From an uncultured Gammaproteobacteria bacterium (GTDB taxonomy: Bacteria > Patescibacteriota > Patescibacteriia > Magasanikbacterales > GWA2-37-8): DNA of 64,000 nucleotides. Of this stretch, positions 1,431 to 52,624 are shown piece by piece. The stretch lies in NCBI GenBank assembly GCA_964510885.1, contig CAZEDL010000002.1, positions 707 to 64,706 of the forward strand, given 5' to 3'. Position numbers and translations under genes: made by a program. The notes beneath the pieces were generated by a model. It was not told the DNA's origin. It searched no databases and saw only the letters and a program-made list of their open reading frames with translations. Numbering within the stretch: the stretch's first letter is position 1; every line of letters begins with the position of its first letter.

Positions 1431-1603
1431 GTCATCCTGATCCGCCCGAGGCGGAGAAGGATCCCTTAACGCTGACCCCATCGATGTTTTTGAATTTAAG
1501 GGATTCTTCGTTTCACTCAGAATGACAAGTTGATTGCGGTGTGGTGTGTGACTGGATTCCCGCCGGAGTTTACCCCCAGCGTAAGCGGGGGCGGGAATGA
1601 CAC
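1431..1603. repeat. Mosaic palindromic intergenic element, copy R1 (modules GTCATCCTGA..., AAGGGATTCTTCGTTTCACTCAGAATGACAAG, TGGATTCCCGCC...GGCGGGAATGACAC)
   Basis: Nested imperfect inverted repeats sharing modules with copies at 6867, 13483, 21731, 23656, 28644 and 52518. Confidence 0.75.
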
Positions 1604-1629
1604 GTTGTGAGACCAAGCCATCGTGAATA

Positions 1630-1658
1630 TTGACAAAAAACCGCTTTTCAAGTATATT
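1630..1658 (+). promoter_or_regulatory. Putative promoter for rplA (TTGACA-17-TATATT)
   Basis: Consensus -35 and near-consensus -10 with 17-bp spacing, about 65 nt upstream of the rplA ATG. Confidence 0.45.
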
Positions 1659-1723
1659 TTTCCTACTTATTCATGTGGGACCGGCCCCTTGCGGTTGGGT
1701 TAGCACCACGTAACACACAACGT

Positions 1724-2404
1724 ATGTCCAAACGGATGAAAGCCTTGGCGGCCAAAGTCGACAAGAACAAAGTCTACGGCTGGGATGAAGCCGTCAAATT
1801 GGTAAAAGAAACCAGCGGCGTTAAATTCGACGCAGCGGTGGAAATCCATGCCAACCTTGGCATCGACCCGAAAAAAGGTGAACAGCAAATTCGCGCTTCG
1901 GCCACCTTGCCACACGGCACCGGCCGCACCAAAAAAGTGGCAGCTTTTGTATCCGCTGACAAAGAAAAAGAAGCCAAAGAAGCTGGCGCTGACTTCATCT
2001 ATGGTGATGAAGAAATCAAAAAAATCAAAGATACTGGCAAGATTGAATTTGATGTTGCCGTTACGACTCCAGACATGATGCCTAAGCTGGCCGCGATTGC
2101 TAAAGTACTTGGTCCGAAAGGCTTAATGCCGAATCCAAAAACCGAAACGGTATCGCCGCAAATCAAGAAAATGGTGGAAGAGTTGAAAAAAGGTAAAATT
2201 ACCTTTAAAAATGATGATACCTCGAATGTGCACCAGTCGATTGGCAAGGTGAGCTTTTCTGAAGCACAGTTGAAAGAAAATTTGGCGGCCTTTGTAGATG
2301 TATTGAAGAAGGCAAAACCAGCTACGGCCAAAGGGACATATATCAAAAATTTGGTCATGGTCAGCAGCATGGGCCCAGCGATTCGCATTAGTACGGAAGG
2401 TTAA
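1724..2404 (+). CDS. rplA: 50S ribosomal protein L1
   Basis: MSKRMKALAAK... start and overall L1 length and composition; the ORF-track start at 1673 is an upstream extension. Confidence 0.9.
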   Translation: MSKRMKALAAKVDKNKVYGWDEAVKLVKETSGVKFDAAVEIHANLGIDPKKGEQQIRASATLPHGTGRTKKVAAFVSADKEKEAKEAGADFIYGDEEIKKIKDTGKIEFDVAVTTPDMMPKLAAIAKVLGPKGLMPNPKTETVSPQIKKMVEELKKGKITFKNDDTSNVHQSIGKVSFSEAQLKENLAAFVDVLKKAKPATAKGTYIKNLVMVSSMGPAIRISTEG

Positions 2405-2425
2405 ATAACTGCCTTACATTTATTA

Positions 2426-2456
2426 GAAACATCCGCTCGGATGTTTCTTTTTTTTG
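2426..2456 (+). terminator. Rho-independent terminator after rplA
   Basis: GAAACATCCG-CTC-CGGATGTTTC stem followed by T8. Confidence 0.7.
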
Positions 2457-2488
2457 CTTTAAATTAGCCAAAATAAAGCTAAAATGTC

Positions 2489-2517
2489 TTGACAAAACCG
2501 TTAAAATGTGCTATACT
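2489..2517 (+). promoter_or_regulatory. Conserved promoter module (TTGACA-17-TGCTATACT with extended -10) upstream of the GC-rich lipoprotein gene
   Basis: CTTGACAAAACCGTTAAAATGTGCTATACT; near-identical to the modules at 32212-32240(-) and 49776-49804(-). Confidence 0.6.
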
Positions 2518-2603
2518 TCTAAGTTCGGTTTTTCCGAACGATTCAATGCTCTTTGACAATTGATTGTGTGTTATAACCTACTTTTTGCCTTAGGTTAGCC
2601 ATT

Positions 2604-6866: not shown

Positions 6867-6956
6867 GTCATTCTGAGTGGAACGAAGAATCCCTTAACGC
6901 TAACTTCAGCAGTGAGTTTAACTTTAAGGGGTCCTTCGCTACGATCAGGATGACAG
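6867..6956. repeat. Mosaic palindromic element, copy R2 (GTCATTCTGAGTGGAACGAAGAATCCCTT ... AAGGGGTCCTTCGCTACGATCAGGATGACAG)
   Basis: Imperfect 29-bp inverted repeat arms around a 30-nt loop. Confidence 0.75.
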
Positions 6957-11127: not shown

Positions 11128-12084
11128 ATGCGGTGTTTGGTTTTGATAACAGTCCTAGCTGTCGGGTGCCAGGCACCTGACAGCTGGATCCCTCCTGAAA
11201 CCTGTTACGATGGCGTCGAAGATACCGGCGAGACCGGTGTCGACTGCGGGGGCACATGCCCCCAAGGGTGTGGTCCGCGCCAGTGCTTCGCCGATGACTC
11301 GTGTTGCAGCAGTGACGACGACTGCGCCACCGGCCTTAAGTGCCGGAGCGGGTTCTGCGGCGTCAGGGCCTGTGCGGATCAGACCGACTGCGCCGACGGG
11401 TTCACCTGCAGTGCAAACTCGCCCGATGCAGCCAAGTTCTGTAGCTATAGTGACGGATGCTCCGATGGCACACACACCATCGGGCTCGGAGAGACCGATG
11501 TGGACTGCGGTGGGGCGATTTGCCCCCTCTGCAAAGAGGGGAAGCACTGCTACCAGAACATCGACTGCGACTGGTCGGTCGGCCTCGTGTGCGGCGCAGG
11601 CAACATCTGCCAACGGCTCGCATGTTCCGACAACGGCGCGTCATGTGACAACGCCCTGCACCCTCCGGCACGGCCCTGGTTCACCTGCCAAGCCGGGACG
11701 TGCACCGCTCCGTCATGCCGCGATGGGGTGAAGAACGGCATTGAGACGGACGTGGACTGCGGCGGAGAGAGTGGCACCGGCCCTGGGTGCAATTCCACCT
11801 GCAGACCGGGCCAGAAGTGCGGCAGGTACTGGGACTGCCTGGACCGCGGCGCCTGCAACGCAGGCATCTGCCAAGCTCCCACCTGCACCGACGGGGTGAA
11901 GAACGGGGCCGGGGTGAAGACTGAGTGGGGTATCGACTGCGGCGATCAATCCGGGACGTGTCCCGGATGCCACAGTAACACCCCTTGCCAACAGAACTAC
12001 CACTGCGCCAGCGGCGTCTGCCACCAGTGTGCGTTGGGGGACCACAGTCCACCCTGCACCGCCACTGGGAGTTACTGTCAGTAA
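11128..12084 (+). CDS. GC-rich cysteine-rich secreted lipoprotein (about 60 Cys, repeated DCGG/CxxGxC modules)
   Basis: About 65% GC; AGAGGAG Shine-Dalgarno; signal peptide with lipobox LAVGC; repeated 'TDVDCGG..C' units. The many overlapping antisense ORFs in the track are GC artefacts. Confidence 0.6.
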   Translation: MRCLVLITVLAVGCQAPDSWIPPETCYDGVEDTGETGVDCGGTCPQGCGPRQCFADDSCCSSDDDCATGLKCRSGFCGVRACADQTDCADGFTCSANSPDAAKFCSYSDGCSDGTHTIGLGETDVDCGGAICPLCKEGKHCYQNIDCDWSVGLVCGAGNICQRLACSDNGASCDNALHPPARPWFTCQAGTCTAPSCRDGVKNGIETDVDCGGESGTGPGCNSTCRPGQKCGRYWDCLDRGACNAGICQAPTCTDGVKNGAGVKTEWGIDCGDQSGTCPGCHSNTPCQQNYHCASGVCHQCALGDHSPPCTATGSYCQ

Positions 12085-12204
12085 TCCCAAGAGCGGCCCA
12101 GGCACATAGTGCTTGGGACGGCTCTGTCACCTGGGCCGCTCGATTAGATCCATGAATTTCGTGGATGTAATCGAGCTCAGGTGAAAAAATGTATTACGTG
12201 TCAT

Positions 12205-12245
12205 TAAAAAAATCTCATACATAATTGAGATTTTTTTATTTTTCT
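12205..12245 (+). terminator. Rho-independent terminator after the Cys-rich gene (A-run, stem, T-run; potentially bidirectional)
   Basis: AAAAAAATCTCA-TACATAAT-TGAGATTTTTTTATTTTT. Confidence 0.6.
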
Positions 12246-12262
12246 ATCCACACCATTATCCC

Positions 12263-12291
12263 TTGCCCCGGCCACACCCGCTTGGTATACT
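12263..12291 (+). promoter_or_regulatory. Promoter TTGCCC-17-TGGTATACT
   Basis: Extended -10 TGGTATACT with 17-bp spacing; it drives the short leader or mini-transcript that ends at the terminator at 12356-12383. Confidence 0.5.
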
Positions 12292-12297
12292 GGCAAA

Positions 12298-12385
12298 GAT
12301 CATTATGCAGAACCACTCCCTCATCACCACTGTTCACGACACACTTTCATAGACGGCCACCCGCAGCGGGTGGCTATTTTTTTGC
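12298..12385 (+). ncRNA. Candidate leader or sRNA with a 15-codon mini-ORF (MQNHSLITTVHDTLS) plus an intrinsic terminator, upstream of carA
   Basis: Promoter at 12263-12291, mini-ORF at 12305-12352, hairpin GCCACCCGC-AGC-GCGGGTGGC followed by T7 at 12356-12383. Confidence 0.35.
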
Positions 12386-12411
12386 CTATATAGTGCTAAA
12401 TATCCTGCCAT

Positions 12412-13473
12412 ATGCCTACGCCAGTCTTTCTAGAGTCTTGGCTACATCTTAAAAATGGAGCCATCTTTCCCGGTCACTCACCAGCCTGGCAAAAAGGTGC
12501 CCGTTGGTCAGGTGAAGTAGTGTTTAATACCGGCATGACCGGTTATGTAGAATCACTGACCGACCCGTCGTATACCGGCCAAATTCTAGTCTTTACCTTT
12601 CCGCTGATTGGTAATTATGGAGTAACTCCGGAAACAGGTTGGGAATCCCAAAAAATTTACGCTTCAGGAGTGGTGGTAAGTGAAGCTTGTGATGCGTGGA
12701 GTCACCCGATGAGTACCCGGTCGCTAGCAGATTGGCTCAAAGAACAAGGCGTGCCTCTCATTGTCGGAGTGGATACCCGGGCTCTGACGCAGGAATTGCG
12801 TGGAGCAGGCACCATGCGCGGCACGATCAGCGGCAGCGCTACACTGTCAGTCAAAGAAACAGACAAGACCATTTCTAATCCGATTCCAGCCTGTTGTATC
12901 GACAAGCCAACTTCCTATGGAAAGGGCAAAAAAAAGATCATTGCCGTGGATTGCGGAATGAAAGAAAATATTATCCGCTGCCTGACCGAATATAACGTGA
13001 CGGTAAAACGCGTGCCGCATGATTATGATTATTCGGACGAGGCGTTTGATGGTGTGTTCTTGTCCAATGGGCCAGGTGATCCGGAGCAGTACGTACAAAC
13101 CATTGCCATTTTGAAAAAGGCTTTTGCTCGGAAGAAGCCAATTTTTGGTATCTGCCTTGGCTCACAAATTATGGCCCTCGCGGCCGGAGCGAAGACCTAT
13201 AAATTACCCTTCGGGCACCGGGGGCATAATCAGCCATGCTTTGATACAGCTGCTAAGAAAGCGGTGATTACGAGTCAAAACCATGGGTATGCCGTGATTG
13301 AAAAAACCTTGCCTAAAGACTGGGAGGTGACGTATCGGAATTTGAACGATCAATCGGTGGAAGGAATCGCCCATAAAAAATTACCGTTCTTTTCGGTGCA
13401 GTTTCATCCGGAAGCAGCGCCGGGGCCGACGGATACGCGGGATTTGTTTGAGAAATTTTTTAAACTATTGTGA
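12412..13473 (+). CDS. carA: Carbamoyl-phosphate synthase small (glutaminase) subunit
   Basis: GEVVFNTGMTGY...; GATase active-site region GICLGSQ; 353 aa. Confidence 0.9.
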   Translation: MPTPVFLESWLHLKNGAIFPGHSPAWQKGARWSGEVVFNTGMTGYVESLTDPSYTGQILVFTFPLIGNYGVTPETGWESQKIYASGVVVSEACDAWSHPMSTRSLADWLKEQGVPLIVGVDTRALTQELRGAGTMRGTISGSATLSVKETDKTISNPIPACCIDKPTSYGKGKKKIIAVDCGMKENIIRCLTEYNVTVKRVPHDYDYSDEAFDGVFLSNGPGDPEQYVQTIAILKKAFARKKPIFGICLGSQIMALAAGAKTYKLPFGHRGHNQPCFDTAAKKAVITSQNHGYAVIEKTLPKDWEVTYRNLNDQSVEGIAHKKLPFFSVQFHPEAAPGPTDTRDLFEKFFKLL

Positions 13474-13482
13474 TGGGCCGAT

Positions 13483-13664
13483 GTCATTCCCGAGCAGGCG
13501 GGAATCCAGTGGCCAATCACTCTATAACCACTTTGTCATTCTGAGCGGAGCGAAGAATCTCTGTCCGGTGGTGAGGCTAGAAATTAAAACAGAGATCCTT
13601 CACTGCGTTCAGGATGACAGTTGAGACGTGGATTCCCGCCTGCGGGAATGACAGATAGTAAACA
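13483..13664. repeat. Mosaic palindromic element, copy R3 (outer GTCATTCCCG...GGGAATGACAG arms enclosing GTCATTCTGAGCGGAGCGAAGAATCTCTGTC ... GACAGAGATCCTTCACTGCGTTCAGGATGACAG)
   Basis: Two nested inverted repeats; sits between carA and carB. Confidence 0.8.
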
Positions 13665-13696
13665 ATAACGCTACTCTGTAATTAAATTATTACGAT

Positions 13697-16600
13697 GTGA
13701 AAAAGACTAAAATCAAAAAAGTCCTCCTCCTCGGCTCCGGCGGCCTCCGTATTGGCCAGGCTGGGGAATTTGATTATGCTGGCTCACAAGCCCTGAAAGC
13801 ACTGAAGCAAGAAGGGATTAAAACCGTGCTGGTGAATCCGAATATTGCCACGGTGCAAACTGATCCGGGGATGGCTGACCAGGTATATCTACAGCCATTG
13901 AATGTCCGGACAGTGACGGAAATTATTAAGAAAGAGCGACCGGACGGAATCTTGCTTAGCTTCGGTGGGCAAACGGCGCTTAATTTGGGATTAGCGCTTG
14001 AAAGCCAGGGGGTTTTAAAAAAATATGGTGTTCGCGTGCTTGGTACGCCGGTCGCGACTATTCGGGTGACTGAGGATCGTGATTTGTTTAAAAAAGCCTT
14101 GCACGAAATTGGGGTGATGACGCCGAAAAGTGTGGCGGTGACCACTGTGCCGGCAGCACTCAAAGCAGCCGAAAAGATTGGGTATCCGATTATGCTGCGT
14201 TCTGGATTTTCTCTCGGCGGGCTTGGCTCCGGTCGGATTGCTGATAAAAAAGAGTTAGAGATCCGAGCAACCGAAGCGCTGCATAATGCGCCGCAAATTC
14301 TGATCGAAGAATATCTCACCGGTTGGAAAGAAATTGAATATGAAGTGATACGCGATGCGAACGACACCACACTTACGATCTGTAATATGGAAAATCTCGA
14401 TCCGATGGGTATCCATACGGGCGAAAGTATTGTGGTGGCGCCGTCGCAGACCCTGACCAATACTGAATTTCACCTCTTGCGCGAAGTGACGATTAAAGTG
14501 GCCCGCAAAATGGGCATCGTGGGCGAAGGCAATGTGCAATTCGCCCTTAATTCCCAGACGGGCGAATACCGGGTGATTGAAATGAATGCGCGGTTATCGC
14601 GCTCGAGCGCTCTGGCTTCCAAAGCTACCGGGTATCCGCTGGCGTTTGTAGCTGCCAAAATTGCGCTTGGGAAAAAACTGACAGAAATTCCGAATGCCGT
14701 GACCAAGAAGACAACCGCCGCCTTTGAACCCGCACTTGATTATGTGGTGGTAAAAATTCCCCGCTGGGATCTGACTAAATTCAAGATCGACAGCCGCGAA
14801 ATTGGTACGGAAATGAAGAGTGTCGGTGAAGTCATGGCAATTGGGCGCAGCTTCCCGGAAGCGCTGCAAAAAGGGGTGCGCATGCTCAATATTGGGGCCA
14901 GCGGATTGTCGGATTATCCCGTAGCTATCGACACGTATCGCCAGGAAATCGAACGCGCCACGGATCGGCGATTATTTGCGATCTACCAAGGGCTTAAAAA
15001 GGGTCTGAGCCTGGCTGAAATTTGCACCTTATCACATATAGACCCCTGGTTTTTGAACCATATCAAAAGTATTGCCGAGATGGAAAAACAGCTGCTGAAA
15101 GAAAAATTAACACCAGAATTACTCCGAGCAGCGAAGCGTCTCGGCTGGTCGGACAAAGGTATTAGTAAGCTGAAAAAAACCACGGAGCAGGCGATCCGGC
15201 AGCTGCGGCTAAAGCACAAGATTACTCCGGTGATAAAACAAATCGATACCCTGGCTGGTGAATTTCCGGCGGCGACTAATTATTTGTATACCACGTATCA
15301 TGGGGAAAGAAATGACATTGCACCAAGCGCTAAACACCCCTTGATTATTCTTGGCTCTGGCCCCTACTGCATCGGGTCGTCGGTGGAATTCGATTGGTGC
15401 GCAGTGAATACTGCTCGCACCTTGCGCTCGCTCAAAGAAACTACAATCATTATTAATTCTAATCCGGAAACGGTGTCGACTGATTATGATGAATCTGATC
15501 GTTTGTATTTTGAAGAACTGACGCTGGAGAGGGTGCAAGATATTGCGGATTTTGAAAAATCTAAAGGGCTGATTGTATCAGTCGGCGGTCAGATCGCTAA
15601 TAATCTGGCAGCCCCGCTCGCAGCGGCTGGCTACCACCTGCTTGGCACTTCAGCAGCCTCAATTGACCAGGCAGAGGATCGTAAAAAATTCTCTACCCTA
15701 CTCAACACACTTGGAATCGATCAACCGGCGTGGACGGAAGCGACTACTCTTGCCAACGCAAAAGAGTTTGCTGAAGAGGTAGGATACCCAATCTTGGTAC
15801 GCCCTTCGTATGTATTGTCGGGAGCGGCGATGAATGTAATCCACTCAGGGGCAGAGCTGCAGCGATACCTCGATGAAGCTACTGAGCTATCGAGCGATCA
15901 TCCGGTGGTGATTTCACAATTTATCAAAAATGCCAAAGAGCTTGAAGTCGACGGTGTAGCTTATAACGGTGAGGTAGTGATCGATGCCATTTCCGAACAT
16001 ATTGAAAATGCGGGCGTGCATTCAGGGGATGCTACGATCGTGTTGCCGCCGCAGCGTTTGTATCTCGGCACGATTCGACAAGCCAAACACATCACCCGCC
16101 AAATTGTAGCCGCTCTCAAGATCACTGGGCCATTTAATATTCAGTTTTTGGGGCGAGATAACGAGCTTAAAGTGATCGAGTGCAATTTGCGCGCCTCGCG
16201 GTCATTCCCGTTTGTGTCGAAAGTTACCACTCATAATTTTATTGCTCTCGCTACCCGCGCGCTCCTGAACAAATTACCGATGATTCGGCCGTTTGAAACT
16301 CTAGAGCTTAACTATGTAGGTGTGAAAACGCCGCAGTTTTCATACCAGCGCGTGAAAGGCGCTGATCCCGTGACCCGGGTGGAAATGGCCTCGACCGGCG
16401 AAGTCGGCTGCCTGGGGCGCACCTACCGCGAAGCGTTTGTCACCTCATGGCTTGGCACTGAACAAGACATTCGCGGCAAACGCGCCCTGATCTCGATCGG
16501 CGAGGACAAAAAAATGAAATTGCTTGAACATGTTAAAGCGCTGGCTGAGGCTGGTTGGACATTGTTTGCCACCGATGGCACCCATGACCTCTTGGCGCAA

Positions 16601-16894
16601 AATGGCATTATGAGTACCTGGGTAGCCAAAACGCACGAAGCGGCCGAACCGAATGTGCGCACCCTCCTGACGAATCAAGGCGTAGATTTAATTATCAATA
16701 TCCCGCAAAATGGCGGCTCAAACCAAGCCACCAGCGGCTTCGCTTTGCGACGCCTCGCCACCGACCACCGAATCCCCCTGATTACCAATGTACAATTGGC
16801 GCAATTATTCCTCCGCTGCATATCCGAACTAGATTTTACTCATCTGCCGGTGGTATCGTGGCAAGACTATACTAATCGAACCTTATTTTCTTAA
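13697..16894 (+). CDS. carB: Carbamoyl-phosphate synthase large subunit
   Basis: 1065 aa; duplicated ATP-grasp halves and MGS-like C-terminus; apparent GTG start. Confidence 0.95.
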   Translation: MKKTKIKKVLLLGSGGLRIGQAGEFDYAGSQALKALKQEGIKTVLVNPNIATVQTDPGMADQVYLQPLNVRTVTEIIKKERPDGILLSFGGQTALNLGLALESQGVLKKYGVRVLGTPVATIRVTEDRDLFKKALHEIGVMTPKSVAVTTVPAALKAAEKIGYPIMLRSGFSLGGLGSGRIADKKELEIRATEALHNAPQILIEEYLTGWKEIEYEVIRDANDTTLTICNMENLDPMGIHTGESIVVAPSQTLTNTEFHLLREVTIKVARKMGIVGEGNVQFALNSQTGEYRVIEMNARLSRSSALASKATGYPLAFVAAKIALGKKLTEIPNAVTKKTTAAFEPALDYVVVKIPRWDLTKFKIDSREIGTEMKSVGEVMAIGRSFPEALQKGVRMLNIGASGLSDYPVAIDTYRQEIERATDRRLFAIYQGLKKGLSLAEICTLSHIDPWFLNHIKSIAEMEKQLLKEKLTPELLRAAKRLGWSDKGISKLKKTTEQAIRQLRLKHKITPVIKQIDTLAGEFPAATNYLYTTYHGERNDIAPSAKHPLIILGSGPYCIGSSVEFDWCAVNTARTLRSLKETTIIINSNPETVSTDYDESDRLYFEELTLERVQDIADFEKSKGLIVSVGGQIANNLAAPLAAAGYHLLGTSAASIDQAEDRKKFSTLLNTLGIDQPAWTEATTLANAKEFAEEVGYPILVRPSYVLSGAAMNVIHSGAELQRYLDEATELSSDHPVVISQFIKNAKELEVDGVAYNGEVVIDAISEHIENAGVHSGDATIVLPPQRLYLGTIRQAKHITRQIVAALKITGPFNIQFLGRDNELKVIECNLRASRSFPFVSKVTTHNFIALATRALLNKLPMIRPFETLELNYVGVKTPQFSYQRVKGADPVTRVEMASTGEVGCLGRTYREAFVTSWLGTEQDIRGKRALISIGEDKKMKLLEHVKALAEAGWTLFATDGTHDLLAQNGIMSTWVAKTHEAAEPNVRTLLTNQGVDLIINIPQNGGSNQATSGFALRRLATDHRIPLITNVQLAQLFLRCISELDFTHLPVVSWQDYTNRTLFS

Positions 16895-16904
16895 TGTTTC
16901 AGCT

Positions 16905-17834
16905 ATGCCGAAATCTGCATCGTTTAAAGGCAAAGATATTATCTCGATTCGTGATTTTTCGCGAGCGGATATTGAACATGTTTTGTCAGTCGCCAAAAAA
17001 CTAAAACAAAAACCAGCCCCACAGCTCCTGTCCGACACTGTGCTCGGCGCCTGCTTTTTTGAACCCTCTACCCGCACGAGATTGTCGTTTGAATCGGCGA
17101 TGCAGCGACTTGGTGGCAGAGTGATCGGATTTGCCGATCCGAGCGTGACATCGAGTAAAAAGGGCGAAACCTTTCATGATACGATCAAAGTGGTCAACCA
17201 ATTCACCGATGTGATTGTGGTACGCCATTACCTTGAAGGGGCGGCCCGCTATGCGGCCGAAGTATCAAGTGTGCCGGTGATCAATGCCGGCGACGGATCA
17301 AATGAACACCCAAGCCAGGCTCTGCTCGATCTATTTACTATGCAGGAAGCCCAGGGAAAGATTGACGGCTTGCACATTGCGCTCGCCGGCGACCTCAAAT
17401 ATGGCCGCGGCATCCACTCGTTGGTGTTGGCATTACAACACTTTAAAGTTCACTTGTATTTTATTGCCCCGCCCACAGTCAAAATTTCTCCAGCTATTCG
17501 CACCGAACTTAAACGCGCTGGGGTACTATTTTCAGAGCATGCCAGCATCGATGAAGTGATCAAAAAAATCGATATTCTCTACCTGACCCGCATGCAGGAA
17601 GAGCGGTTCCCGGACCGGGCTGAATATGAAAAGGTGAAACACGCTTTTTTTGTGACACCGGAATTGATCGCCAAAGGCAAGCGAAACTTGCGCATTCTGC
17701 ATATTATGCCGCGGGTATGCGAAATGGATACTGCCATTGATAATTCACCTCAGGCCTACTATTTCGAACAGGTACATAACGGCTTATTTGTGCGTGAAGC
17801 ATTATTCGCATTGGTACTTGGAAAAATTTCTTAA
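16905..17834 (+). CDS. pyrB: Aspartate carbamoyltransferase catalytic subunit
   Basis: STRTR motif (FFEPSTRTRLSFE) and HPSQALLD. Confidence 0.9.
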   Translation: MPKSASFKGKDIISIRDFSRADIEHVLSVAKKLKQKPAPQLLSDTVLGACFFEPSTRTRLSFESAMQRLGGRVIGFADPSVTSSKKGETFHDTIKVVNQFTDVIVVRHYLEGAARYAAEVSSVPVINAGDGSNEHPSQALLDLFTMQEAQGKIDGLHIALAGDLKYGRGIHSLVLALQHFKVHLYFIAPPTVKISPAIRTELKRAGVLFSEHASIDEVIKKIDILYLTRMQEERFPDRAEYEKVKHAFFVTPELIAKGKRNLRILHIMPRVCEMDTAIDNSPQAYYFEQVHNGLFVREALFALVLGKIS

Positions 17835-17846
17835 TCGCCAAGATCT

Positions 17847-18317
17847 ATGATTACGTCGAATGAACAACTGCAAGTCGCCGCCATTAAAAATGGCACAGTT
17901 ATTGACCATATTTCAGGAGGCAGTGCCCTTAAAATTATCCGCCTCTTAAATTTACCCAAAGATAAAACGCAGGTCACCGTGGGTCTTAACTTGCCAAGCA
18001 AGCAAATGGGGGTGAAAGATTTAATAAAAGTAGAAAATCGTACTTTAACCCCTGACGAAGCCAATCGGGTGGCGTTATTCGCCCCGTCGGCCAGCATTAA
18101 TATCATTGAAAAATACCGAATTGTTAAAAAATTTACGGTTGCTATGCCGAAACAGATCCATGGTATCGTTGTCTGCCCCGGAGCCAAGTGCATCACCAAT
18201 CATGAACCCATGGAGAGCCGATTTAAAGTAGAAACGATGAACGGCGCCGTATCGCTGCGCTGTGATTATTGTGATACGGTATTTTTGCGCGATGATGTTA
18301 AAGAATATCGGGTATAA
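17847..18317 (+). CDS. pyrI: Aspartate carbamoyltransferase regulatory subunit
   Basis: 156 aa; C-terminal zinc domain CPGAKCITN...CDYCD. Confidence 0.85.
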   Translation: MITSNEQLQVAAIKNGTVIDHISGGSALKIIRLLNLPKDKTQVTVGLNLPSKQMGVKDLIKVENRTLTPDEANRVALFAPSASINIIEKYRIVKKFTVAMPKQIHGIVVCPGAKCITNHEPMESRFKVETMNGAVSLRCDYCDTVFLRDDVKEYRV

Positions 18318-18320
18318 ACT

Positions 18321-19511
18321 ATGGAGATAAAAACATATACTGGCCAAATCATCAATGTACCGCTAGATAGTAAACAAACTGATACCCTTGTGGCACTCCC
18401 CGGCCTGATTGATCTGCATGTCCATTTTCGCACTCCTGGCCAGGAATATAAAGAAGACTGGCAGTCGGGAGCGCGTGCTGCCATCGCCGGCGGCGTGACC
18501 ACGGTGGCGGATATGCCAAATAATAGTCCGGCTATTACCACGGCTGAACTAGTGCGCCAGAAAGTAGCGACCGTGACAGAACACCTAGCTGACGCCGACC
18601 TTCCCCTCCGGCACTACTTCTATATTGGCGCCACACCAAACAATGACACCGAAATAAGGCAGGCAGCGGCCGAAAAAAGTGTGATTGGGATTAAAGTATT
18701 CATGGGGTCAAGCACGGGGACACTCCTAGTGAACAATCGCGATGATCAGCGCCGACTGTTCGCGTTATCAGCTGAACTAGGCGTACCGCTGCTGCTCCAT
18801 GCCGAAGATGAAGCGTTAATAAATGAAAATAAAGTACGGTATCCTAATCCGACACTTCTCGAACACTCATTGATTCGCTCTCCGGCCGTGGCGGCCCGGG
18901 CCCTCGAATCGGCGCTCGAGATGGCCGCAGAATATAAAAATACGATCTATGTACTGCACACCAGCACTGCCGAAGAAATGAATTTGTTGCGCGATGCTAA
19001 AAAATCTGGCATTAAAGTATATGCCGAAACTACGCCCCACCACTTATTTTTGACAACCGAGGATTACGGACGGCTTGGCACCAAAGCCCAAATGAATCCT
19101 CCGCTACGGTCTAAAAAAGATCAGACGGCACTCTGGGAAGCGGTGCAAGACGGAACAATCGATACCGTTGCCACCGATCATGCCCCTCACACGATCGCAG
19201 AAAAAAATAAACCATATCCAGACTCTCCGTCTGGCGTGCCGGGAATAGAAACGATGCTGCCACTGCTTTTGAATGCCTACCGCGAGGGACGGCTTACCCT
19301 GAGTCGACTGGTAGCGCTTACCCATACCAATCCACGCACTATATTTAATCTACCGGAAAGAAATGATTGGGTGATCGTCGATACCGCACTTATTAAAATG
19401 GTCGCTGATACTACTTTAAAAACTAAATGTGGCTGGTCGCCGTTTAGCGGGCAAATACTCACTGGTTGGCCGGTGGCGACCGTTATAGACGGGCAGGTCT
19501 TTACTTACTAA
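18321..19511 (+). CDS. pyrC: Dihydroorotase
   Basis: DLHVHFRTPG metal-binding motif; amidohydrolase fold; 396 aa. Confidence 0.85.
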   Translation: MEIKTYTGQIINVPLDSKQTDTLVALPGLIDLHVHFRTPGQEYKEDWQSGARAAIAGGVTTVADMPNNSPAITTAELVRQKVATVTEHLADADLPLRHYFYIGATPNNDTEIRQAAAEKSVIGIKVFMGSSTGTLLVNNRDDQRRLFALSAELGVPLLLHAEDEALINENKVRYPNPTLLEHSLIRSPAVAARALESALEMAAEYKNTIYVLHTSTAEEMNLLRDAKKSGIKVYAETTPHHLFLTTEDYGRLGTKAQMNPPLRSKKDQTALWEAVQDGTIDTVATDHAPHTIAEKNKPYPDSPSGVPGIETMLPLLLNAYREGRLTLSRLVALTHTNPRTIFNLPERNDWVIVDTALIKMVADTTLKTKCGWSPFSGQILTGWPVATVIDGQVFTY

Positions 19512-19519
19512 TTGCGCCT

Positions 19520-20164
19520 ATGAACCTAGCAGTTGATATCGCTAAACTTCTCCTTGATATTAAAGCAGTCACAGTTAGCATCAATCCCCCGTATACCTGG
19601 TCATCCGGGATTAAAGCGCCGATTTATTGCGATAATCGCCTGATCATTTCTTACCCAGCCGAGCGCCGCCGGATTATTGAAGGATTTAAAAGCATTATTA
19701 AAGAAAAGGGGCTGACCTTTGATGTGATCGGGGGCACCGCTATGGCCGGAGTGCCCTGGGCTGCTTTCTTGGCGTATGAACTTGATAAGCCGCTTATATA
19801 TATTCGCCCCGAACCCAAAGCCCATGGCAAAGGTAAGCAGGTAGAGGGCACGATGCCACGCGGCGCTAGAGTTCTCATCGTAGAGGATTTAATTTCTACC
19901 GGAGGCAGCTCGCTCAAATCAGCGGTGGCGTGCGTGCGCGAATATGAAGCGGTGGTAACTGATATTATTGCTATTTTTACCTACGAGATGCAGTCGGCTA
20001 GGCAGGCTTTTTCTGACGCTGGGATTTCTCTCGCTACTCTTAGCAGCTTCTCTACCTTAATCGAGGTGGCGCAACAGGAAAAATACCTTACCGTTGCCGA
20101 AAAATCAGCAGCCTTCGCGTGGAGCACCGACCCGGAGCACTGGTTCGAATCCCTTACTACTTAA
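19520..20164 (+). CDS. pyrE: Orotate phosphoribosyltransferase
   Basis: PRPP-binding motif VLIVEDLISTGGS; the ORF-track start at 19466 overlaps pyrC and is an extension. Confidence 0.85.
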   Translation: MNLAVDIAKLLLDIKAVTVSINPPYTWSSGIKAPIYCDNRLIISYPAERRRIIEGFKSIIKEKGLTFDVIGGTAMAGVPWAAFLAYELDKPLIYIRPEPKAHGKGKQVEGTMPRGARVLIVEDLISTGGSSLKSAVACVREYEAVVTDIIAIFTYEMQSARQAFSDAGISLATLSSFSTLIEVAQQEKYLTVAEKSAAFAWSTDPEHWFESLTT

Positions 20165-20167
20165 GAC

Positions 20168-20915
20168 TATGAGCTATACCGACATCATTCGCAAACTATA
20201 TAACCAATTTGGCCAGCTATATCACGATTCTCGCTCCGAAGGACCAGGGCGACTACATAATGAATATATTGATCGACCGGCCTTATTAAAACTACTTCCC
20301 AAATCATTGAAGGGGCTGACCGTGCTTGATGCCGGATGCGGTACCGGGATAGTAAGCACGCTGCTAGCCAAGCGAGGAGCCAAGGTAATCGGACTCGACC
20401 TGAGTTCAGTGATGATAGATATTGCCTGCCGTGAAACACCCGCAAAACTGGGAGTAGAATATATCATTGGCACGCTTACTCGCCTGCCTTTTGCCGCCAC
20501 TTCATTTGATCTAGTTGTTTCTAATTACGTATTAGAAAATATTAAAGCACTCCCTACCGTGTTCGACGAATTTTATCGAGTACTTAAAAAAAATGGGAGT
20601 GTTATTTTTTCTATCGCTCACCCCATTAAATCACAAAGCATCGGCACGGAACCGTTAGGAAAAAAGGTGCGAGTGATTGAAGATTATTTTACCCCTGGGA
20701 TGCGTGATGCTGATTTTGGACGAGGTCTCATTGTCCCTAAATTTCGCCGACCGCTCGAAGCCTACACCATCGCTGCGACTGAAGCTGGCTTTTTGATTAG
20801 CGATTTACGCGAGCCGCGCCCTATTGCCGCTGGAAAAAAAGTAGTTCCCGACGGCTATGCAGTCGCTTGTCGGTTACCCCAGTTACTGACAATGAAGTTG
20901 GTTAAATTAAAATAA
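20168..20915 (+). CDS. Class I SAM-dependent methyltransferase
   Basis: Motif I VLDAGCGTG and post-I acidic residue (IGLDLS); inserted between pyrE and pyrF. Confidence 0.6.
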
Positions 20916-20931
20916 TTTTTAACTGCTTTCT

Positions 20932-21705: not shown

Positions 21706-21730
21706 TTAAAAACTATTGAAAAATTAATTC

Positions 21731-22752: not shown

Positions 22753-22763
22753 TAACAATATAT

Positions 22764-32156: not shown

Positions 32157-32211
32157 GTATACCTCCTTGCCAATCATCGGGTTCGCTGAGGACAGGCAAA
32201 AAGATAGTTAT

Positions 32212-32240
32212 TAAACAGAGTAGTATAGCACAAAAACAGG
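32212..32240 (-). promoter_or_regulatory. Conserved promoter module (minus strand) TTGACA-17-TGCTATACT for the His-rich gene
   Basis: CCTTGACAAAACCCTGTTTTTGTGCTATACT; near-identical to 2489-2517. Confidence 0.6.
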
Positions 32241-32295
32241 GTTTTGTCAAGGTCTTTTGGCTTTATTTTGTTTTATTTTAGCCAAATTTTATACG

Positions 32296-32467: not shown

Positions 32468-35400
32468 CTATATTTTTTTAATGCCTATACGTAGTTCTGT
32501 ATCATCAATTTTTAATATTACTCCTTCGGCCTGGTTATCTGATTCAATTACATCTGCCAGCGTCGCTTGCTTTATTTCAGCGGCTTTAGAGCTGATTAAT
32601 TGCTGCAGCGGCTCGGCAGCAGTTGCGCAGGCAATTATAATCCGATCGTTTACCGTTAGCCCTTTATCCTTGCGTAACTGATTAATGGCCCGAATAATAT
32701 CGCGCATTACGCCTTCTTGTTTTAATTCTTCATCTATTGCGGTATTCAACCAAGCTTTGAGATCGGCAGTTTCTTTGCCAGCGTACTGATCCCCTTCCAC
32801 CGCTTCGGCAAACGACACGGTTTTGACATTGAGTTCATCGGCAATGATACCAAGCAGCTCATGATTTTGGTGGATATTGTTCGCCACAAAAGCTGCTTCT
32901 TTACTAGCGCAGAATACAAATTCGCGGAGCGGCTGGCGGACTTTTAATTTATGTTCGGCACGCAGCGACAGCCCAAGTTCCACCAAATTGCGTACCATGA
33001 TCATGGTATCGAGAATTGAGCTGTCGTGCTGATTGGTACTGACAGTTGGCCACTCGGCCAGGTGAACACTAGCGGGCTCAGCGTTCGGATCGGTTATATT
33101 TAGCAAGGCGCCATAAATTTTTTCGGCAATGAAGGGAGTAAATGGAGCCATGACTTTTGACAATAGCGGCAAGACATAGGCGAGCGTGCCGAGTGCATAC
33201 TGGCGATCTTTAGTATCATCGCCTTTCACCCGGTCGCGGCTGCGGCGCACATACCACTGCGATAATTCGGTGATAAACTCTTCAATTGGGCGAGCGGCGG
33301 CGGCCAGCTCGTAGGCATTGAGTGCAGCAGTGACCGCGGCCACAAGCGCGTGCGCCTTGGCGACTACCCAGCGGTCGAGGGGGTGGGGCGAGGTGTGGGT
33401 GGGCTGGTGCGGGGTGGCGCTAGCAAATAATTCATAGAATTCATACACGTTCCAGAGGGTGTTGACCACTTTGCCAAAACTTTCTTTCACCCCGGCTTCG
33501 GAGAAATTGAGGCTTTCGGCATGCATCACAGGCGATGACACCAAATAATAACGCATGGCGTCGGCCCCATATTTCTCGATGAGCTGATTCGGATCAGGGT
33601 AGTTCTGTAACTTCTTACTCATTTTTTTGCCGTCTTCGGCCAGCACGATGCCATTTACCACCACGTTTTTGAAGGCGGTTTTGTCGAACAGGGCAGTGGC
33701 GAGGATGTGCAAATAATAGAACCAGGCGCGGGTTTGATCTTGGCCTTCGCCAATAAATTCAGCCGGGAAACTGGCTTCAAATGCGGCTTTATTTTCGAAT
33801 GGATAATGCACCTGCGCATACGGCATGGAGCCGGAATCAAACCAGGTATCAAGCACATCTGGCACACGGCGCATAGTGCCGCCGCAGTGTTCGCAGGGGA
33901 AAGCAATCGTGTCCACGATGTGTTTGTGCAAGTCGTCGATCTTTTTTCCTGAGGCTTTTTCAAGCTCGGCTGCCGATCCAAATACCTTGGTTGAATTACA
34001 AGATTTAGAATTTCCACTAGCTTGCTCTGTGCTGTCACACACCCAAATCGGCATCACACTCGCCCAGAAACGTTGGCGGGAAATGGACCAGTCGCGGGCA
34101 CCTTCGAGCCACTTGCCGAAGCGGCCTTCTTTGATATGCTCTGGCGACCAGTTAATGTCTTTGGCCAATTCTAGGGCTTTATCTTTTACTTTTGTTACTG
34201 CGACAAACCAGGACGAGGTGGCGTAGTTGAGGAGCGGAGTATCACAGCGCCAGCAGTGCGGATAGGTATGGACGATATTCTTTTTGGCAAAAAACAGGCC
34301 TTTGTCTTGGAGGTATTTGGTGACGGCAATGTCGGCCGATAGGCGGACTTTGTCATCATCGGAGCGGGGCTTCACTTCTTGACCGGCGAAATCAATCACT
34401 TCGGGCTTAAAACGGCCATCGGGGCTGACGTGCTGCACGAGCGGGATCTGTTCGCGCTTGCCAACCTTGAAGTCGTCGTCACCAAACGCTGGAGCGATAT
34501 GGACGATGCCGGTGCCGTCTTCGGTAGTTACGAAATCAGCAGCTACGACACGGAAGGCTTTTGGCGTGTCTTTGTAATAAGGAAAGAGGGGTTCGTAGGT
34601 AAGACCAACGAGCTCAGGGCCAGAGATTTCTTTGAGTATGGAATATTCTTTATCACCAACAACTTCTGTTAATCTCTCTTTGGCAACAATGTAAGTTCCT
34701 GATTCCCCAGAAATAGTGAATAGTGCGTAGCTAATTTTTTCACCCACGGCCAGCGCTACATTTCCGGGCAATGTCCAGGGTGTTGTGGTCCACGCTACTA
34801 TGTGGACCGGGCTCTCTACCCCAAATAACTCCTTGATTCGTAATTCGTCATTCGTAATTCGAAATTTTACAAACAGCGAAATATCTTTCACCTCTTTATA
34901 CCCCTCGCTGACTTCTTGCTGCGACAGGGTGGTTTCGCAACGTGGGCAGATATGCATGGAGCGATAATCTTGATAGATAAGATCTTTGTCCCACAGCTGC
35001 TTGAACACCCACCAGACAGATTCCATATACTCTTTATCCATGGTGCGGTAGGCATGATCCATGTCGACGAAGCGGCCGAGGCGGGTAATGGTGGTTTTCC
35101 AGTCGGCCACATAGCCGAGCACTTTGCTGCGGCAGAGCTCGTTGAATTTAGCAACGCCGAGAGCTTCGATATCTTGCTTGCTTTTGGTGCCGAGCTCTTT
35201 TTCCACGATGTTTTCGATCGGGAGGCCGTGGCAATCCCAGCCCCAGCGGCGCTCTACCCGGTAGCCCTGCATGGTGAAGTAACGCGGCACCACATCTTTA
35301 ATCAGACTGGCGACAATGTGGCCATAGTGCGGCAGGCCGGTGGCAAAGGGCGGGCCGTCGTAGAATACGTAGGGTTTGTCCGCGGGGCGAGTAGAGACGG

Positions 35401-49735: not shown

Positions 49736-49775
49736 GCCGCGCCGGGGGTTAGATAAAAATAATAAAAGTAGAGTT

Positions 49776-49804
49776 ATTGTAGCACAAAATAAGGCTTTTG
49801 TCAA
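49776..49804 (-). promoter_or_regulatory. Conserved promoter module (minus strand) TTGACA-17-TGCTACAAT for the polyamine operon
   Basis: CATTGACAAAAGCCTTATTTTGTGCTACAAT; upstream AAAGCCAAAAGG block shared with 32241-32260. Confidence 0.55.
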
Positions 49805-50006
49805 TGCCTTTTGGCTTTAATTTTAGAAATTTTTGAAGAAAATTTTCGCAAGAGTACCGATCTGATGCCGAAAAAGTATCTGAGTATAACTAAATACTAT
49901 TTTTTCTGGCCACTTGATCCAGACGCCAATTAATTTGGCAACTAAACCAGGGGGTTGTCCGTTTTGCGCTCGGGTGAGGCTAGGGGGACAGGGCCTATAG
50001 ATGCTG

Positions 50007-50510
50007 CTAAAGAGTGGGTGGTGTACCGTTGCTTGCCGCAGCGACAGAGAGCACCTCTCTTGCGGCCTGCTGCTGGCCTTTGTACATCAGATAGACAACA
50101 ACCAATGACAGCAGGAAGGCAGCAAGGTGGTAGTAGTTGGTGCGCGGTGAGATACCGGGCAGCACCTGGTTGACCAACCATACAAACACCGGCATCATGG
50201 CAAAAATGGCACGCATTTCAAACGCGCCGACGCCGCGATTCATAGCTTCAAAATAGAGGTAATCGGGAACGAAGAACAGGAATCCGAAGCCTAGGGCAGT
50301 AAAAAGTAGCCAGCCTGATGGTAAATTACCATCCGGATTCCCAGCAGTACGCATTTTGAGCATGATTGCGCCTGTGACGATGAGCATTGGAACATAGAAG
50401 CACGCCATCTGAGCAGGTGTTGAAACCCGCCCAGACAGAAAACGAGCAACGAGAACGTTGAAAAGAGCGCTCGCGAGCATTGCGGCGCACGCAAGAATGA
50501 TTCCAATCAT
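50007..50510 (-). CDS. Membrane protein (167 aa), function unknown
   Basis: Four hydrophobic segments. Confidence 0.4.
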   Translation of the reverse strand: MIGIILACAAMLASALFNVLVARFLSGRVSTPAQMACFYVPMLIVTGAIMLKMRTAGNPDGNLPSGWLLFTALGFGFLFFVPDYLYFEAMNRGVGAFEMRAIFAMMPVFVWLVNQVLPGISPRTNYYHLAAFLLSLVVVYLMYKGQQQAAREVLSVAAASNGTPPTL

Positions 50511-50713
50511 TTTTTCATCTCCTGTGGTTTTGGTTCCGAACAGCGCGCAGCACGCTTACCTAGAAAGAATAAGCATCTGCGTGCTGTTCGGAATACTCAA
50601 AGAACTTGTTCTACAATTATTAGAACAAAGAAATATAGCAAACAATGATAGCGATGTCAATGTTTAGGAATACAAAAAACTAGCAGTTAGGCTAGTTTTT
50701 TGTAGCGAAATGG

Positions 50714-51433
50714 CTAATTATAAAAATCCATCTCAAGTGGCTCGTGAATACCGCGTAGCCGCGTTAATTCGGCTTTGCGGCCGTGAAAAAAGTCAATTGA
50801 TTGGCACACGGCTTCGTGACTCATTTCGGGGGCTAGGAGGCAGAGACCCTCTTCAAAGGCCCGGACCCGGGCGCGGATTTCGTCGACAAGCATTGGATGA
50901 TCAGTTTCCTTATCAGCCAGCTCGTGCAGGCGTTGTAGGTGGCCTTTTATTTCTTCGAGCACAGTTTCAAATTCCACTACTTTGGCCAGATATTTTTGCT
51001 GACTGAGGCCTTTTAACTCTTGTTCGACATAACGGCGCAGATCAAATTGCAGTTCGACCAAGGCTACACAGAGGCGTGTCCGGTCGTCGCTCGTGAAATA
51101 GTCAGCCGGGCGGCCAGAATGCAGCTCGCGTAGATTCCCGCCGTAGGCTTTGAAATCATGGTATTTGGCTTGTAATTCAGCTGGGAGCTTGGGCAAAAAG
51201 AATTTTTCCCCCACGGCAGCTTCGGCCGCAGCTAAAAATTCTTGATAGGCCTTGTTCCAAGGCCAGACTTCGTACCCCCAGGTTATCATGGCGTCTTCGA
51301 TGGCGGTCAGAGTCACTGATTCATCCCTTGAAACATGCTCAATCGCCTCATTCATTTCGTGTTTGAGGTTGTCGGGGAAGAGTGGGGGTAGGTTGTTGTA
51401 GAGTCGCCGAAAGAGGGCGAGGGTGGATTCCAT
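50714..51433 (-). CDS. Hypothetical protein (239 aa)
   Basis: ORF only. Confidence 0.4.
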   Translation of the reverse strand: MESTLALFRRLYNNLPPLFPDNLKHEMNEAIEHVSRDESVTLTAIEDAMITWGYEVWPWNKAYQEFLAAAEAAVGEKFFLPKLPAELQAKYHDFKAYGGNLRELHSGRPADYFTSDDRTRLCVALVELQFDLRRYVEQELKGLSQQKYLAKVVEFETVLEEIKGHLQRLHELADKETDHPMLVDEIRARVRAFEEGLCLLAPEMSHEAVCQSIDFFHGRKAELTRLRGIHEPLEMDFYN

Positions 51434-51437
51434 ATAA

Positions 51438-51908
51438 CTATTGCCGCTTAAGATGTTTAGACAACTCGTAGAGTGCTACCCCTCCCGCAATACTGACATT
51501 TAAACTATTTTTTTTACCACGCATTGGAATTTCAAGGGCTGCATCACAGAGGTCGAGCAGATTTTTGGTGACGCCGGTTTTTTCGTTGCCAAGGATAAGT
51601 GCGAGCGGAAAAGAGAGCTGATACTTATATATACTAACACTCTTTTTAGTTTGCTCCAAGGCAATAATTTGGTATCCGTCGGCTTTTAATTTTTTGATGA
51701 GACGGCCGGGTTGCCTGACATATTCCCAAGGAACGAAATGTTCGGCGCCGAGAGAAACTTTGGCGACTTTGGGGTGGGCGGGAGTTGGCGAATAACCGGT
51801 AATATACACTTTATCTACACCGGCACCGTCGGCAGTGCGGAGCAGTGCGCCGACGTTGTGGGCACTACGGATGTTGGGGAGAATTAAGATAAATTGCGCG
51901 TGATCCAT
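51438..51908 (-). CDS. SpoU/TrmH-family RNA 2'-O-methyltransferase
   Basis: SPOUT motifs (HNVGALLRTADGAG, LILGNEKTGV, NVSIAGGVALYE). Confidence 0.75.
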   Translation of the reverse strand: MDHAQFILILPNIRSAHNVGALLRTADGAGVDKVYITGYSPTPAHPKVAKVSLGAEHFVPWEYVRQPGRLIKKLKADGYQIIALEQTKKSVSIYKYQLSFPLALILGNEKTGVTKNLLDLCDAALEIPMRGKKNSLNVSIAGGVALYELSKHLKRQ

Positions 51909-51951
51909 ATGTCATCGTCTGTTTTAACTGCCTGCTGGTAGGAGCCCGAAT

Positions 51952-52026
51952 AAAGAATCATGAATTACGAATAAAGGAAGCAAAAATGCATTTCCTTACT
52001 TCTTAATTCGTAATTCGTGATTCTTT
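51952..52026. repeat. 21-bp near-perfect inverted repeat (AAAGAATCATGAATTACGAAT ... ATTCGTAATTCGTGATTCTTT) spanning the ruvC stop codon
   Basis: 20 of 21 bp match; contains the GAATTACGAA module shared with R4 and R6; the right arm encodes the RuvC C-terminal HELRIKK. Confidence 0.7.
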
Positions 52027-52499
52027 AGCCACAAAGCCTGTCCTGCAGTGAGCGCTATCGCCAGGGCATCGGCGGCATCGTCGGATTTTACCGGTTGCTT
52101 GAGTTTCAAAATGGTGGCGACGATTTTTTGCATTTGCCCTTTGTCAGCACGGCCGTAACCAGTGACGGATTGTTTTACTTCAAGCGGAGTGAACTCATCG
52201 ATAGCAAGATCATGCTCGATACCGGCTAAGAGCACCACTCCCCGCGCCTGGGCCACCTGAATTGCGGTGGTGATATTTTTGAAAAAGAATAATTCTTCTA
52301 CAGCCAGGCGAGTCGGGTGATAAGTTTTGACCAGATCGGTGACAGCGGTATGGATATCTTTGAGCCGTTCTACAAAGGAGTCCTTCGGATCGGTTTCAAT
52401 ACAGCCGTAGGCAACAGCCTGCCACTCCCTGGTTTTTGTCTGCTCAATAATGCCATAACCCAGGCGACCAAAACCCGGATCGATACCGAGAATTCTCAT
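51996..52499 (-). CDS. ruvC: Crossover junction endodeoxyribonuclease RuvC
   Basis: MRILGIDPGFGRLGYGI... with catalytic D/E residues; the ORF-track N-terminal 9 residues are an extension. Confidence 0.85.
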   Translation of the reverse strand: MRILGIDPGFGRLGYGIIEQTKTREWQAVAYGCIETDPKDSFVERLKDIHTAVTDLVKTYHPTRLAVEELFFFKNITTAIQVAQARGVVLLAGIEHDLAIDEFTPLEVKQSVTGYGRADKGQMQKIVATILKLKQPVKSDDAADALAIALTAGQALWLKNHELRIKK

Positions 52500-52517
52500 A
52501 TAAAACCCTTTAAACAG

Positions 52518-52624
52518 TGTGATCACGAGGAGCGTAGCGACGTCGTGACCCCCTTAATTTTAAAAAATCTGAAAACAGGGGGATTGCCATGTCGGTCGCC
52601 GCGAGACTCTCCTCGCAATGACAC
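52518..52624. repeat. Mosaic palindromic element, copy R8 (GTGTGATCACGAGGAGCG...GTGACCCCC // GGGGGATTGCC...GTCGCCGCGAGACTCTCCTCGCAATGACAC)
   Basis: Imperfect 35-47-bp arms; GTCGCCGCGAG...AATGACA module shared with R4. Confidence 0.65.

Follow-up and report, generated by a model that had tools for sequence, protein, structure and literature searches.

The closest described counterparts of the repeats analysed here, a group of intergenic hairpin elements in a 64-kb stretch of contig CAZEDL010000002.1 from an uncultured bacterium (the whole stretch is referred to below as the window), come from Neisseria. In that genus the Neisseria Transformation Sequence (NTS; CGTCATTCCCGCGMAVGCGGGAATCYRG), a sequence that includes the dRS3 repeat, was defined by Chenal et al. 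(Nat Commun 2025; PMC11893778) alongside a degenerate "Ssn-related motif" (SRM). Its partner SsnA is a 94-amino-acid (aa) nuclease with a single GIY-YIG domain, which binds the hairpin only as single-stranded DNA (ssDNA) and in one orientation, cuts a few nucleotides (nt) upstream and reportedly does not bind RNA; for cleavage the three bases on the 5' side of the palindrome are the most critical, and for binding the C right after it (PMC11893778). Genes of this type (ssn; cd10448) are typically bracketed by their own motifs, 81% of the genomes with more than 200 SRMs encode SsnA, and a parallel with REP/BIME elements was drawn by the same authors (PMC11893778). The second related system is that of intergenic mosaic elements in Neisseria (NIMEs), i.e. 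dRS3-RS-dRS3 arrays based on the 20-bp dRS3 (ATTCCCN8GGGAAT), which were considered Neisseria-specific in 2007 (PMC1797815).

In a first-pass annotation of the window, eight intergenic loci (labelled here E1-E8) built from three modules (a, b and c) were described as one mosaic, REP/MITE-like family. The loci and the modules were all present, and the description as mosaics of shared modules was correct for seven of the eight loci, which are composed of common hairpin units; E7 is a separate AT-rich palindrome without a GTCAT unit and lies outside the hairpin-unit family. We consider it likely that these seven loci are mosaics of Ssn-type hairpin repeats (NTS/SRM; NIME-like). Their natural unit is a hairpin of 22-55 nt rather than the locus. 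The seven loci comprise 18 units (U1-U18; Table 1), 14 strict and four degenerate, with the shared architecture (T)GTC-AT[stem-loop-stem]AT-C, that is (T)GTC followed by a palindrome starting and ending with AT, and then by C. A GTC head is found in 17 of the 18 units, nearly always as TGTCAT (the deviants listed are U14, with CTC, and U17, with GTG); the combination of this head with C after the palindrome likewise occurs in 17 of 18, and the C is present in every strict unit. Perfect stems of 5-9 bp are found in 14 units, and the hairpins form when folded with DNA parameters. Most units are arranged as inverted doublets, i.e. unit (+), a spacer of 34-40 nt and unit (-), with the GTC ends pointing outward.

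A strict search (GTCAT, a perfect stem of at least 5 bp, then C) gave 18 matches in the window versus 1.42 ± 1.25 (maximum 6) in 200 dinucleotide shuffles; 14 of these were in the claimed loci and the remaining four were long-loop chance matches within genes. The degenerate units (U5, U11, U14 and U17) were recognised by eye or by a mismatch search. The module-a pattern TGTCATYCTGANYGNANCGAAGRATC (up to 3 mismatches) was found seven times in the window and never in 100 shuffles, while the module-c motif TTCGTAATTC (up to 1 mismatch) gave 14 matches versus 5.4 ± 2.5 expected. Mismatch-tolerant searches placed module a (GTCATTCTGAG..GAAGAATC, with its partner GATCCTTC..TCAGGATGAC) at 1502, 6867, 6930, 13535, 13594, 28643 and 28757, module b at 13483 and module c at 21741, 21892 and 28734. 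Comparison with shuffled sequence, as well as folding and covariation analysis, had been proposed as checks in the first-pass annotation; the matches to module a and to the generic unit far exceed those in shuffles, the doublets fold stably and the stem covaries across genomes (see below). No Rfam family was found in the window at gathering thresholds.

U6 with its flanks (13482-13509) differs from the Neisseria NTS consensus by two mismatches, and positions 13486-13505 within it are an exact dRS3 match; neither was found in shuffles. The window units share with the NTS/SRM-SsnA system (i) the head (GTC), a hairpin bounded by AT, the C that follows the palindrome, the orientation and the presence of many copies, and (ii) their position, in other genomes, on both sides of a gene for a single-domain GIY-YIG protein of ~90-94 aa. 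They differ from it in that the dominant class of the window (GTCATYCTGAG..GAAGRATC; class a, or the CTGAG class) and two other classes fall outside the published SRM search sequence, HGTCWYN(0-2)YYVSBRHN(0-5)WNVSBRGN(0-2)RNCYNB, and in that the partner nuclease of class a belongs to a sister clade only 42-46% identical to SsnA, with no ssn gene in the window. Judged by sequence, class a is a widespread class that the published motif does not capture. The likeness to NIMEs lies in the mosaic structure between genes, with short spacers bounded by short hairpin repeats in inverted orientation, and in the nesting and mixing of modules; dRS3-like pairs are formed by E5 and by the outer units of E3. 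In contrast to NIMEs, the spacers are 34-40 nt long (RS elements of NIMEs: ~50-150 bp), the arrays are short (2-4 units), class-b units other than the exact dRS3 match have 6- or 10-nt centres, and the host is not Neisseria, the nearest named carB matches being Chlamydiales and Verrucomicrobia metagenome-assembled genomes (~68%).

GTDB representative genomes contain the class-a pattern GTCATYCTGANYGNANCGAAGRATC, for which about 0.5 chance matches are expected in 596 Gb, in at least 120 stretches. More than 15 phyla are represented, among them Nitrospirota, Patescibacteria, Chloroflexota, Acidobacteriota, Bacteroidota, Gemmatimonadota, Omnitrophota, Planctomycetota, Verrucomicrobiota, Bacillota and Pseudomonadota. 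The pattern was also present on at least 120 viral or proviral contigs of IMG/VR, and the CTGAG-type hairpin occurs in Cyanobacteria as well. No paper containing the CTGAG-class sequence came up when the literature was searched for the module-a sequence. Covariation was analysed with a pattern that fixed only the unpaired parts of the unit and did not require pairing. At stem position 3 the pairs were T-A (113), C-G (69) and G-C (20), and 93% were of the Watson-Crick type versus 40% expected if the two sides were independent; the hairpin structure is under selection. Among adjacent units in other genomes the outward "+-" orientation dominated (66 cases versus 21, 10 and 12 for the others, usually 9-45 nt apart), and the doublets of the window are therefore the standard form of the family. 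The rule that a doublet consists of one T-type and one C-type unit, which applied to four of four doublets in the window, was dropped as not robust elsewhere, same-type pairs making up 51% (45% expected) in one set and 14% (34% expected) in the other.

The open reading frames (ORFs) of the 120 class-a GTDB loci were clustered without prior assumption. Among the loci listed, a single ORF family was always unit-adjacent (at 6, 7, 24 and 38 nt), and it encodes a protein of ~90 aa that consists of a single GIY-YIG domain (Pfam). An alignment of four proteins of this family was then used to select 80 metagenome loci by protein similarity alone. A unit was present within 150 nt upstream of the GIY-YIG gene in 47 of them, downstream in 51 and on both sides in 36, and the unit density was ~5.9 per kb near the gene versus 0.21 per kb beyond 500 nt (about 28-fold). 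Almost all of these units were of the CTGAG class, those upstream mostly on the gene strand (+) and those downstream mostly inverted (-). One of the 80 loci also contained the loop of U17.

The GIY-YIG clade shares 46% identity (E 4e-16) with an ORF of N. gonorrhoeae (hhalign: probability 99.5%, 42% identity). This ORF is 94 aa long, carries Y6, Y17 and E64 (the residues mutated in PMC11893778) and lies among 11 NTS units arranged as doublets; since its length, these residues and the 11 flanking units match the published description, we identify it as SsnA. PLSDB lists two complete chromosomes of N. gonorrhoeae (2.17 Mb) among its plasmids, and NZ_CP119142.1 gave the ssnA locus. GTC-hairpin-C units also stand on both sides of each of the homologues in Rhizobium, Azospirillum, Sphingobium, Aeromonas, Spirosoma and Planktothrix, the stem sequences being particular to each, and the flanking units in Planktothrix include the exact 25-mer of U2 (1502-1526). 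In Planktothrix agardhii plasmid p1 (1209-1958 of the retrieved locus) the GIY-YIG gene (WP_083616022.1) is bracketed by class-a doublets and is located between an MmeI-type restriction-modification gene and drmA of DISARM, i.e. in a defence island.

By analogy with the Neisseria system, a unit would fold into a hairpin whenever its DNA becomes single-stranded (in replication, in repair or as incoming DNA), a small single-domain GIY-YIG nuclease (Ssn) would bind the folded unit in one orientation only, and the strand would be nicked a few nt 5' of GTC. The gene-less doublets of the window would descend from hairpin-ssn-hairpin cassettes, as non-autonomous derivatives that in this lineage spread into intergenic DNA; we consider this their best reading because they have the same arrangement as the hairpins bracketing ssn genes elsewhere. 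The window carries no ssn gene, and therefore the cognate nuclease of this genome is a putative one, as would be, on the same analogy, its cleavage of the units and any gain or loss to the cell. The effect could be that incoming homologous ssDNA is restricted, as in Neisseria, or that the repeats spread selfishly, or it could be neither of these.

Several points weigh against the Ssn assignment. Neither an ssn gene nor a remnant of one was detected in the window with a hidden Markov model (HMM) of 86 sequences (best match: E 2.6), and a search with a GIY-YIG motif pattern and tblastn with three probes did not find an ssn gene there either; no transposase or nuclease gene was found in the window. 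The published SRM pattern had no match in the window, since the other units have different loops and stems, and only two matches in 80 module-a loci; it recovers proteobacterial sites and misses the CTGAG class (eight matches in the gonococcal ssnA locus, none in that of Planktothrix). Since the GTC, hairpin and C determinants are present, we take this as the lack of one feature of membership and not as a refutation. At least four stem classes coexist in the window. A single nuclease with narrow specificity would not account for them, which points to several nucleases, to one that is tolerant or to orphan sites. Adjacent Ssn-type GIY-YIG genes were sought in 120 class-a loci from IMG/VR (1.04 Mb) and none was found. 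Finally, the CTGAG-type hairpin is a predicted Ssn cleavage site.

As regards the history of the elements, two syntenic relatives (82% carB aa identity; carB-pyrB-..-pyrF, Band7 and ruvA) contain no units in 11.7 and 22 kb, and have short intergenic regions at the sites of E3, E4 and E5. Because units are missing at these orthologous sites, the elements are taken as lineage-specific gains; at 82% aa identity the relatives are too distant for an alignment of intergenic DNA that would place exact insertion points or target duplications. A comparable case is provided by Azospirillum lipoferum 4B, in which a doublet-ssn-doublet cassette of ~530 nt lies between sufB and sufC (680-1186 of the retrieved locus). 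The site is empty in three Azospirillum species, with flanking DNA 95-96% identical, and the cassette thus behaves as a discrete insertion.

Tentatively, and with more doubt than confidence, the hairpin-ssn-hairpin cassettes might be regarded as autonomous mobile elements, in which a GIY-YIG ssDNA nuclease takes the place of a transposase, and the doublets of the window as their MITE-like derivatives. The presence/absence pattern at sufB/sufC, the nesting in E3, the unit-free syntenic relatives and the outward orientation common to gene-flanking units and gene-less doublets are consistent with such mobility. The CTGAG lineage would, in that case, have spread across more than 15 phyla, a cyanobacterial plasmid and the PVC-like genome of the window carrying 25-mers that are identical, and Ssn repeats would be a pan-bacterial selfish-element system, not a Neisseria-style transformation modulator.

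Among the alternatives to Ssn-type repeats, the units could be RNA-level elements, i.e. hairpins selected as mRNA stabilisers, processing sites or terminators in operons. A role in RNA stability or processing was suggested in the first-pass annotation; several units do lie between co-directional genes, right after stop codons, and fold well as single strands (the doublets form long hairpins, z -2.3 to -4.6, while class-b units fold singly). However, none of the units coincides with a terminator-like site (searched in 12000-30000 and 51000-53500) or is followed by a T-run. Owing to the asymmetry between T-type and C-type units, the transcript of E2 and E3 has a G-U pair and that of E1 and E6 a C-A mismatch; orientation is therefore not tied to transcription, and the orientation of the doublets relative to transcription, as read from the sequence, is mixed (2 versus 2). 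The placement between operon genes (carA/carB, thyA/folA), on which the suggestion was based, was confirmed by Pfam, whereas E6 is probably not in an operon transcript, as it is located between a strong terminator-like hairpin (28849-28885, -) after the ATP-grasp gene and a promoter-like site (28583-28611, -) of the next gene. Moreover, the same units flank nuclease genes in many phyla, and SsnA itself is reported not to be RNA-binding (PMC11893778). An RNA-level role is therefore unlikely, although the units may have a side effect on mRNA.

We regard it as quite improbable that the units are REP/REPIN elements mobilised by RAYT (an IS200/IS605-type Y1 transposase), with the doublets as REPINs and a RAYT gene, bordered by such hairpins, in another part of the genome. 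The gross anatomy is the same: as in the REP/BIME/REPIN-RAYT systems of E. coli and Pseudomonas, short hairpins with a conserved 5' flank form inverted doublets and mosaics, are intergenic and occur in many copies, and a dedicated protein gene is flanked by its own sites; the parallel with REP/BIME is that of PMC11893778 itself. The protein, however, is here a GIY-YIG nuclease and not an HUH/Y1 transposase, and the head is GTC and not GTAG-like. No transposase-like family recurs beside the units in the 120 loci (no direct RAYT HMM search was made), where the GIY-YIG family alone does so, and the ~28-fold enrichment beside the GIY-YIG gene was obtained in loci seeded by protein. Of the proposal in the first-pass annotation that the elements are targets of a dedicated nuclease or transposase encoded elsewhere, only the nuclease part finds support, in the Ssn/NTS architecture and in the units flanking GIY-YIG genes.

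It is very improbable that the units are attachment sites of a recombinase: class-b units do hold dRS3 or near-dRS3 sequence, and dRS3 has been cited as the target of a phage recombinase (PMC11893778) and hypothesised to be a recombinase site (PMC1797815), but no recombinase or prophage lies beside any unit of the window, the recurrent neighbour across genomes is the GIY-YIG gene, and such a role would not account for the flanks, GTC and C, that are conserved in class a. Almost no credence can be given to the view that the elements are MITEs of the classical kind, descended from an insertion sequence with a DDE transposase and having terminal inverted repeats and target-site duplications: the doublets are 86-99 nt long and end in TGTCAT..ATGACA, yet the four class-a doublets (E1, E2, E3-inner and E6) have no target-site duplication, as read from the sequence, the window is without a transposase, and the supposed terminal inverted repeats are themselves self-folding hairpins with internal covariation.

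Should the assignment to Ssn-type repeats hold, the partnership of repeat and nuclease that was reported for Neisseria and some Proteobacteria in 2025 extends to a much larger, unrecognised sequence class. This would provide (i) a candidate explanation for short conserved intergenic sequence that gene callers may take for spurious ORFs, (ii) new predicted specificities for site-specific ssDNA nucleases, which are sought as tools, and (iii) nested doublets and filled/empty sites as natural material for testing cassette mobility. For the window alone the consequence is modest, a "MITE/REP-like family" being re-labelled as Ssn-type hairpin mosaics.

The gene context of the loci (Pfam) is as follows: tgt/E1/rplA, thyA/E2/folA, carA/E3/carB, pyrF/E4, Band7/E5/ruvA, hypothetical/E6/ATP-grasp and SpoU/E7/ruvC/E8/yebC. 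Doublets are found in E1, E2, E4, E5, E6 and E8 and in the inner part of E3. The last locus is nested, with a class-a doublet within the spacer of a class-b doublet (13483-13506/13631-13652); with the inner doublet removed, a spacer of ~37 nt is left, equal in size to that of E5. E4 is a doublet inside module-c inverted repeats, while E6 consists of a doublet, a half copy of module c and a third unit. The coordinates of these and of the minor features described below are collected in Table 1.

Table 1. Hairpin units, associated modules and other repeats of the 64-kb window (positions are those of the window).
Feature	Position	Strand	Description
E1 doublet	1431-1526		U1 and U2
U1	1431-1463	+	class a, ATCCT stem, nested CCGCC/GGCGG hairpin in loop; left arm of E1 doublet
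U2	1502-1526	-	class a, GTCATTCTGAGTGAAACGAAGAATC; right arm of E1 doublet; identical to units at the Planktothrix GIY-YIG gene
U3	1555-1601	-	class b, NTS-like, 9-bp stem ATTCCCGCC, long loop insertion
E2 doublet	6867-6954		U4 and U5
U4	6867-6891	+	class a; left arm of E2 doublet
U5	6930-6954	-	class a, degenerate tail GGACC; right arm of E2 doublet
U6	13483-13506	+	class b; outer left arm of nested E3
E3 inner doublet	13535-13618		U7 and U8
U7	13535-13559	+	class a; inner left arm of E3
U8	13594-13618	-	class a; inner right arm of E3
U9	13631-13652	-	class b, short loop; outer right arm of E3
Module c	21733-21757	+	left outer inverted repeat of E4 (..GCTCTGAATTACGAAA), 5' of U10
U10	21765-21790	+	ATCCC/GGGAT stem, resembles the Spirosoma class; left arm of E4 doublet
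U11	21826-21880	-	degenerate, long loop (GTCATTCC..GGCAATC); right arm of E4 doublet; read from sequence
Module c	21892-21917	+	right outer inverted repeat of E4 (TTTCGTAATTCAAAGCT..)
E5 doublet	23656-23747		U12 and U13
U12	23656-23681	+	class b variant, compensated 8-bp stem ATTCCTGA/TCAGGAAT; left arm of E5 doublet
U13	23722-23747	-	class b, ATTCCCGC stem; right arm of E5 doublet
E6 doublet	28643-28726		U14 and U15
U14	28643-28667	+	class a, degenerate, head CTC not GTC; left arm of E6 doublet
U15	28701-28726	-	class a; right arm of E6 doublet
Module c, half copy	28734-28758	+	between U15 and U16
U16	28757-28781	-	class a; extra third unit of E6
E7	51951-52027	.	separate 77-nt AT-rich palindrome, TTCGTAATTC motifs, no GTCAT unit, z -8.55
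U17	52519-52550	+	degenerate (GTGATCACGA-GGAGCGTAGCGACG-TCGTGACC); left arm of E8 doublet; read from sequence
U18	52582-52622	-	ATTGC/GCAAT stem, long loop; right arm of E8 doublet
Promoter-like repeat	2445-2530	+	
Promoter-like repeat	22003-22088	+	~100 nt downstream of E4
Promoter-like repeat	28568-28653	-	26 nt from E6
Promoter-like repeat	32208-32293	-	
Promoter-like repeat	49762-49847	-	
318-aa ORF	11128-12084		direct DNA repeats
Heptamer inverted repeat	24358-24435		(ACGTAAC)n facing its complement
Repeats in ileS	34828-34867		ATTCGTA type

The TTCGTAATTC motif is the sole feature that E7 shares with module c. The ruvC gene reads into the E7 repeat, since its last residues are encoded by the right arm (51996-52027) and its stop codon lies between the arms, just inside the loop. 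Within the ileS ORF, ATTCGTA-type repeats again represent the heptad TTCGTAATTC motif seen in module c and E7; they encode ..FRITNDELRIKE.. in a variable region and could be a small in-frame insertion or a chance occurrence.

A promoter-like repeat of ~60-70 nt, ..AAAGCCAAAAG.CCTTGACA-N17-TGTGCTATACT, is present in five copies and comprises a conserved block upstream, a -35 close to the consensus and an extended -10. The rpoC ORF seems truncated at its N-terminus only because it runs past the window end. At the start of ruvA, beside a NIF3-like gene, tandem heptamers (ACGTAAC)n face their complement, the two arms being 91% complementary and separated by a 13-nt gap. The 318-aa ORF, which has no Pfam match, contains direct DNA repeats, ~250-260 nt apart and, in a second pair, 168 nt apart, which encode motifs rich in Cys (..TDVDCGG..).

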